Virus record (IMG/VR): IMGVR_UViG_3300029043_000145
DNA: 4,336 nucleotides
Strand: one strand, 5' to 3'
Source of the DNA: a virus
Lineage: Duplodnaviria; Heunggongvirae; Uroviricota; Caudoviricetes
Under the pieces are notes generated by a model. That model did no database searches and was not told the origin of the DNA. It saw only the letters and a list, made by a program, of their open reading frames with translations. Positions 225 through 480 of the stretch are shown piece by piece. The number at the start of each line of letters is the position of its first letter. Position 1 is the stretch's first letter. The translations under genes and the position numbers were made by a program.

Positions 225-273
225 GCCTTTAGGATGTACACAATGAGACAGAAGAGCTATGCGACTGCCGCTT

Positions 274-480
274 CTACTTCGACGGGCACAATAACACTGG
301 CGTGATTGCCTTTTGGCCCTGGTGGACATCAAACTGAACGGATTGTCCAGCTTTTAGCGTTCTGTAACCATCCATCTGAATGGTGGAATAATGAGCGAAA
401 ATATCTTCGCCGCCGCCTTCAGGGCAGATGAAACCAAACCCTTTGGCATTGTTGAACCACTTAACAGTACCCTTTTCCAT
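274..480 (-). CDS. cspD: Cold-shock-domain protein CspD, C-terminally altered by an apparent 1-bp deletion. The ancestral frame would stop at 257-259.
   Basis: Minus-strand translation from the ATG at 480-478 gives [55 protein letters not shown], the CspD N-terminal 55 residues as I recall them. It then reads [13 protein letters not shown]. The expected tail [18 protein letters not shown] is present in the -1 frame ending at 257-259. The ORF-track start at 510 is an upstream in-frame extension; the conserved start is 480. Confidence 0.88.

Follow-up and report, generated by a model that had tools for sequence, protein, structure and literature searches.

CspD, a stationary-phase replication inhibitor and a substrate of Lon, condenses ssDNA, and a link to persister formation has been described (review PMC7566177). 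In the window analyzed here, by which we mean the whole stretch of 4,336 nt, the cspD reading frame is shifted shortly before its end by a missing base. This raises the question of whether the organism carries an altered CspD or whether the base was lost when the sequence was determined. The whole window corresponds to E. coli chromosome and comprises the 3′ end of macB, cspD, yljB, and the leftmost 3.6 kb of an island that carries an integrase. Alignments and annotation place cspD in its orthologous position, between macB and yljB/clpS, and the features of this neighborhood are as follows:

2–184, + strand: 3′ end of macB, the normal downstream neighbor of cspD (annotation of matching records)
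195–225: hairpin GCCAGCC-GATCG-GGCTGGC, lying between macB and cspD, which converge, with an A run and a T run at its flanks (read directly)
257–319, − strand: out-of-frame cspD remnant, 20 residues of the native C-terminus with a stop at 257–259 and no further damage
274–480, − strand: cspD frame as present, 68 aa, with ATG at 480 and stop at 274–276; native through G55, then a novel tail of 13 aa
317–319, − strand: site of the 1-bp deletion, where the + strand has C3 and the coding strand GGG; C4 in every comparator
318–322: Dcm motif CCTGG, read as CCAGG on the coding strand, which shares bases with the shortened run; CCCCTGG in the intact gene (motif scan)
575–602, − strand: sigma-70-like promoter match upstream of cspD, TTGACG, 16 nt, TAAATT (consensus match only)
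630–704, + strand: yljB, 24 aa, the normal upstream neighbor of cspD, its 3′ end overlapping the island attachment core

The hairpin looks like a terminator shared by macB and cspD in both directions, and it was not among the matches of a consensus terminator scan of the window. The promoter-like match is intact and has the same letters as the references, BLR(DE3) and L034, the latter being a gut-metagenome scaffold (ENA ERZ28573107, sample SAMEA2580032).

The alignment to BLR(DE3) has one gap at this site: on the + strand, the window reads GGCCCTGG at 315–322 and every comparator reads GGCCCCTGG, and the deletion alters nothing but the length of the homopolymer. Over 257–319 the DNA is the same as in L034 and BLR(DE3) except for this base. 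Because it is missing, the cspD of the window encodes 68 aa with a new tail and not the 74 aa of the wild type (CSPD_ECOLI, annotated as WP_000410785.1 in BLR(DE3) and in strain E14); residues 1–55 are as in the wild type and residues 56–74 are exchanged for 13 unrelated ones. An earlier note on this DNA had described one base as deleted within a short G/C run, with the conserved tail readable in another frame. Translation and the BLR(DE3) alignment confirmed its coordinates and letters, the translation of the remnant on the − strand recovered the tail with its end at 257–259, and the wild-type C-terminus that the note had given proved correct when compared with CSPD_ECOLI and WP_000410785.1.

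The 68-aa product matches the Pfam cold-shock domain (CSD, PF00313) with E=1.4e-26 over profile positions 2–56 of 66, and the match ends at residue 57. The translation contains KGFGFI and DIFAHY, which we take to be RNP1 and the aromatic-rich RNP2, the nucleic-acid-binding motifs of the cold-shock domain. Wild-type CspD aligns with solved cold-shock proteins through residue 64. Since the profile match stops at 56 of 66 and the solved proteins align to residue 64, the frameshift takes away the last beta-strand along with the conserved GPKG loop, as had been proposed for the strand from the sequence; measured against a complete five-stranded domain (profile matched to its end, GPKG loop, strand 5), the product lacks the last 10 profile positions. 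A single-sequence AlphaFold model of the product reached a pLDDT of 60, too uncertain to judge the tail against strand 5.

The native tail could still be translated if ribosomal −1 slippage or transcriptional slippage restored the full-length protein. On the coding strand the window reads ...GTC CAC CAG GGC CAA AAG GCA ATC ACG CCA GTG TTA TTG TGC CCG TCG AAG TAG, and two codons past the deletion, at CAA AAG, lies A_AAG, a shift-prone tetranucleotide where a −1 slip of tRNA-Lys would give the native tail with the change P56Q. Slippage without stimulation would yield only a small fraction of product. The 90 nt downstream, however, fold no better than shuffled sequences (z=+0.85), with no stimulatory structure found, and the arrangement is not conserved, all relatives carrying a simple in-frame gene. 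With an unstimulated A_AAG, no stimulatory RNA structure, and no conservation, we rejected a programmed ribosomal frameshift, and recoding that restores full-length CspD is in our view very improbable.

The allele was sought among relatives of the window. None of 5,424 RefSeq complete E. coli genomes carries the deletion (68-nt query, window 285–352; 68 of 69 positions at best). The DUF4222 protein of the window, which is rare, was used as a handle and led to four gut-metagenome contigs that encode it, L034 among them. Over window 1–2871, L034 has 0 mismatches and a single gap, the C in this run, and its 74-aa CspD is intact; it is identical to the window again over 3314–4336 and is, judged by sequence, the closest relative found. 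All 10 loci with the identical integrase encode the 74-aa CspD. Compared with its closest relatives, the window has the deletion as its only indel over 1–2871 and 0 indels over 3138–4336. Its SNPs without a counterpart in the fetched isolate genomes (for example, positions 70, 152, and 1388) are synonymous and common to L034, which argues that the window is otherwise faithful, and by these alignments the deletion is its sole private difference. A lineage allele was ruled out because L034 matches apart from the one base; the comparison with close relatives advised in the earlier note thus did not turn up the allele, as a sequence identical over 2.87 kb has an intact cspD. A Shigella-like or lineage-wide pseudogene found no support either, the cluster members being named E. 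coli and the carriers lying on diverse backgrounds. A search of the literature for a cspD frameshift or pseudogene returned nothing relevant.

In the remainder of the window, 701–4336, lies the left portion of a ~10.6-kb phage-satellite (PICI-like) island, which is inserted at the 3′ end of yljB and upstream of clpS and has the following features:

701–718: att core
885–2123: int
2543–2752: alpA
3204–3407: icd-like gene, 67 aa
3400–3720: 106-aa ORF
3727–4026: DUF4222
about 4023: start of the primase

The attachment core has the sequence ATGATAGTTAT(C/T)TATCAT, forms an imperfect palindrome, and occurs once in the island-free BLR(DE3) and at both island ends in L034. A 25-nt direct repeat, CGGTGTAGTYAATGGTGTAGTTAAT, made of two GGTGTAGTYAAT units, precedes the integrase gene by a short distance and recurs close to the island's right end (window 838–862; L034 5004–5028 and 15637–15661), and these repeats may be arm-type integrase binding sites. 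A 214-aa ORF at 2763–3407 (+ strand) has no Pfam match and seems to extend the icd-like gene upstream by read-through; a 57-aa Arc-like ORF at 2894–3067 (− strand) overlaps it, and relatives have there a 101-aa gene of the YlcI/YnfO family on the same strand as the Arc-like ORF. Further right, relatives of the island carry SSB together with capsid, head-decoration, and small-terminase genes, or modules for capsid protease, portal, and TerL. At least 80% of the whole window is covered at one place in 188 of 5,426 RefSeq complete genomes. The window is a mosaic: 1–2871 and 3314–4336 match L034, which has the island at the cspD site, and 2770–4336 is identical to L035, whose island is related, encodes a 473-aa integrase, and occupies a different place in the chromosome; the stretch 2770–3313 was compared with both. 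The mosaic reflects either a natural exchange of modules between satellites or a switch of the assembly path in a sample with both, and its exact arrangement occurs in no RefSeq complete genome.

The 68-aa CspD is found elsewhere in public data. The exact product is present on 856 contigs in a large protein collection and has GenBank and UniRef entries. We binned the index blocks by the longest carrying contig and used as controls the integrase and the 106-aa ORF of the window, adding the genuine cspD nonsense allele Q54* for comparison, and obtained the following contig-size profile:

68-aa frameshifted CspD: <20 kb, 91%; 20 kb–1 Mb, 1.2%; >1 Mb, 7.8%
Integrase from the window: <20 kb, 40%; 20 kb–1 Mb, 58%; >1 Mb, 1.9%
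106-aa ORF from the window: <20 kb, 50%; 20 kb–1 Mb, 49%; >1 Mb, 1.7%
cspD nonsense allele Q54*, 53 aa: <20 kb, 83%; 20 kb–1 Mb, 17%; >1 Mb, 0.4%

The 68-aa allele is scarce in the size range that contigs of short-read isolate drafts usually have and over-represented on chromosome-scale and very short contigs (Fisher p for the contrasts between 1e-19 and 1e-292). Twelve index blocks put it on contigs of 20 kb–1 Mb, and these could be genuine instances; from the size profile we estimate that genuine instances make up ~2–7% of its records. The chromosome-scale carriers returned are GenBank-only assemblies in 10 of 10 cases, and in most of them clpA, macB, macA, infA, or aat is split. Nine show 9–42 indels per 12 kb against BLR(DE3), nearly all of them 1-bp homopolymer deletions, and the tenth, the island-bearing L007, has altered G5 and A7 runs when compared with island-bearing relatives, with A7 reduced to A6 inside the integrase. 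Among 241 million metagenome records there was 1 match to the allele, on a contig of coverage 1.6 with 27 indels in 6.6 kb. Every carrier that we inspected (11/11) is therefore error-rich. Exact-pattern scans of the GTDB species representatives and of IMG/VR gave 0 matches each. Neither these scans nor exact-protein look-ups with the 68-aa CspD, the integrase, the 106-aa ORF, the DUF4222 protein, and the partial MacB end yielded the window itself. Moreover, the cluster mates of the 68-aa protein have differing indels or substitutions at the same spot (HQGPKAIT..., HRGQKAIT..., HQGKRQSR...), a scatter typical of noisy base calling.

The profile of the nonsense allele bears on a different point. 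Q54* (225 index blocks; L048–L053, with cspD at 3001–3162 of each) is carried on normal draft contigs of 110–417 kb in which clpA, clpS, and macB are intact, and the island is present in one of the strains (L053). Because this allele sits on normal draft contigs with intact neighbors, a natural loss of the CspD C-terminus does circulate.

The 68-aa allele is also carried on backgrounds other than that of the window, with 8 SNPs in L005 and 3 in L010 over 718 nt. Such recurrence would fit a phase-variable (contingency) switch, in which the length of the G/C run turns cspD on and off within the population. Known contingency tracts, however, are much longer than 4 nt, the allele recurs in error-rich assemblies only, and 0 of the 5,424 high-quality genomes are in the short ('off') state, so we regard the probability of a switch as close to nil.

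The sequence context of the deletion was evaluated by comparing all runs across nine error-rich assemblies. On average, a G/C-4 run that has no Dcm site shows a deletion in 0.46 of the 9 assemblies (n=26, maximum 4). The sole other G/C-4 run overlapping CCWGG is the CCAGGGG of clpS, identical to the cspD 7-mer read from the opposite strand, and 6 of the 9 assemblies have a deletion in it. For G/C runs of 3, the corresponding values are 0.03 of 9 without a Dcm site versus 1.0 of 9 with one. These counts, in a test that amounts to one independent site, are suggestive of a preferential deletion of Dcm-overlapping G/C runs in error-rich assemblies. The clpS run, at 7203–7206 of BLR(DE3) (L033) and at corresponding sites in L003–L012, loses one G; ClpS calls of 87 aa are found in five assemblies (L004, L008, L009, and L011, plus L012, where the adjacent A is deleted instead), and no ClpS product is called in L003 and L010. 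Another false frameshift that recurs across public E. coli assemblies is the one at the clpS CCAGGGG. In nanopore consensus sequences of Enterobacteriaceae, Dcm motifs accounted for ~70% of the errors with the default ONT models then current, and the rest were mostly homopolymer lengths (Wick et al. 2019, Genome Biol, PMC6591954). It speaks against an artefact that CCWGG is called by recent R10.4.1 models with about 99% accuracy (PMC11610603). Older PacBio or flow-based chemistries could produce the same cspD deletion without methylation.

We infer for the window's own case, with a probability of roughly 60%, that the missing base is a consensus or assembly error and not a property of the organism; this figure, like the weight that we give to a real allele, is an estimate and not a computed posterior. 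The error would originate at the four C of the intact gene (four G on the coding strand), which are joined to a Dcm site in CCCCTGG. Signal-based reading of run lengths (nanopore, older PacBio, Ion Torrent, or 454), or very low coverage, would undercall such a run, 5-methylcytosine at CCWGG would worsen the undercalling by nanopore basecallers, and one undercalled C would give exactly the 68-aa frameshifted CspD. The cspD deletion in the window is most likely not a real feature. A functionally meaningful allele, as contemplated in the earlier note, found no support, given the intact gene of L034, the 0 of 5,424 RefSeq genomes, and an allele that tracks error-rich assemblies; the sequencing or assembly error that the note had offered as its alternative is the better supported of the two.

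What speaks for a genuine, very recent 1-bp deletion, that is, a private loss-of-function (pseudogene) allele of cspD in this strain, is above all the state of the rest of the window. Of its 91 homopolymers of at least 4 nt, the 90 others are unchanged, and there are 0 other indels against L034, L035, and L020 over 4.3 kb. The runs that agree with the relatives include G5 at 539 and 620, which are often shortened in noisy assemblies, C5TGG at 1873, G7 at 3389, and two A7. The window contains 7 CCWGG sites, and its other ORFs are all intact. If it had the indel density of the carriers, 4.3 kb free of any further indel would be expected with a probability of ~0.03–0.06 for the best three and <1e-3 for the rest. 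For the best three, the densities are somewhat overestimated, because some of the indels counted relative to BLR(DE3) are found in identical form at several loci and resemble natural variation of the tRNA/rtT region, and the true chance may therefore be higher for them. The cleanliness of the window rules out the noisy majority of the carriers and leaves a good assembly with one residual systematic error versus a real mutation. A real mutation is also consistent with SNPs that are synonymous and common to L034, with the dispensability of cspD in nature that the Q54* drafts indicate, and with the 12 mid-size index blocks of the 68-aa allele. Against it stand the absence of the allele from the complete genomes and from an L034 that is identical otherwise, the error-rich state of all inspectable carriers, the low share of genuine instances left by the size profile, and a remnant tail that is undamaged and gives no evidence of selection. 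We thus hold a genuine private deletion to be a serious possibility, though on balance doubtful. A reading of the window as a de Bruijn-graph assembly, from contigs starting at its macB codon, was dropped, as the look-up itself selects that start.

A bolder version would make the deletion one of many independent hits at a mutational hot spot, formed by the G/C run and the 5-methylcytosine site, that repeatedly inactivates or remodels CspD in natural gut E. coli, with −1 slippage at A_AAG possibly supplying a trickle of CspD(P56Q). We consider it very improbable; were it true, the frameshifted CspD entries in public databases would not all be artefacts.

The two main readings differ in what they imply. 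If the deletion is real, the product keeps strands 1–4 with RNP1 and RNP2 and loses the GPKG loop and strand 5, CspD would probably be misfolded or degraded, with its function abolished and a replication inhibitor removed, and the window would hold a private loss-of-function allele of the ordinary kind, in a stress gene that one gut strain can dispense with; its interest for persistence phenotypes would be modest, and no new question would follow from it. In the case of an artefact, CCCCWGG/CCWGGGG sites, exemplified here by those in cspD and clpS, repeatedly give rise to false frameshifts in E. coli assemblies and protein databases, and frameshifted 68-aa CspD calls should not be taken as pseudogenization.

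Finally, the locus can be compared with what is known. It shares with the Dcm and homopolymer errors of long-read assemblies (PMC6591954) a single-base deletion in a G/C homopolymer overlapping CCWGG, the carriers of the allele are dense with such deletions, and quality-filtered RefSeq genomes lack it, but the window differs in that its 4.3 kb contain no further error of this type. With wild-type CspD (CSPD_ECOLI, WP_000410785.1) it shares the macB-cspD-yljB synteny, the promoter region, and the terminator hairpin, the difference being the 13 unrelated residues that replace residues 56–74 in the product. The natural Q54* allele (NCBI, e.g., EES7148741.1) loses the same C-terminal part of CspD, from residue 54–56 onward; unlike the allele of the window, it does so through a stop codon and not a frameshift, and it has a distribution on mid-size draft contigs that the window's allele does not show. 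Q54* shows that the loss of the C-terminal part of CspD is tolerated in nature.
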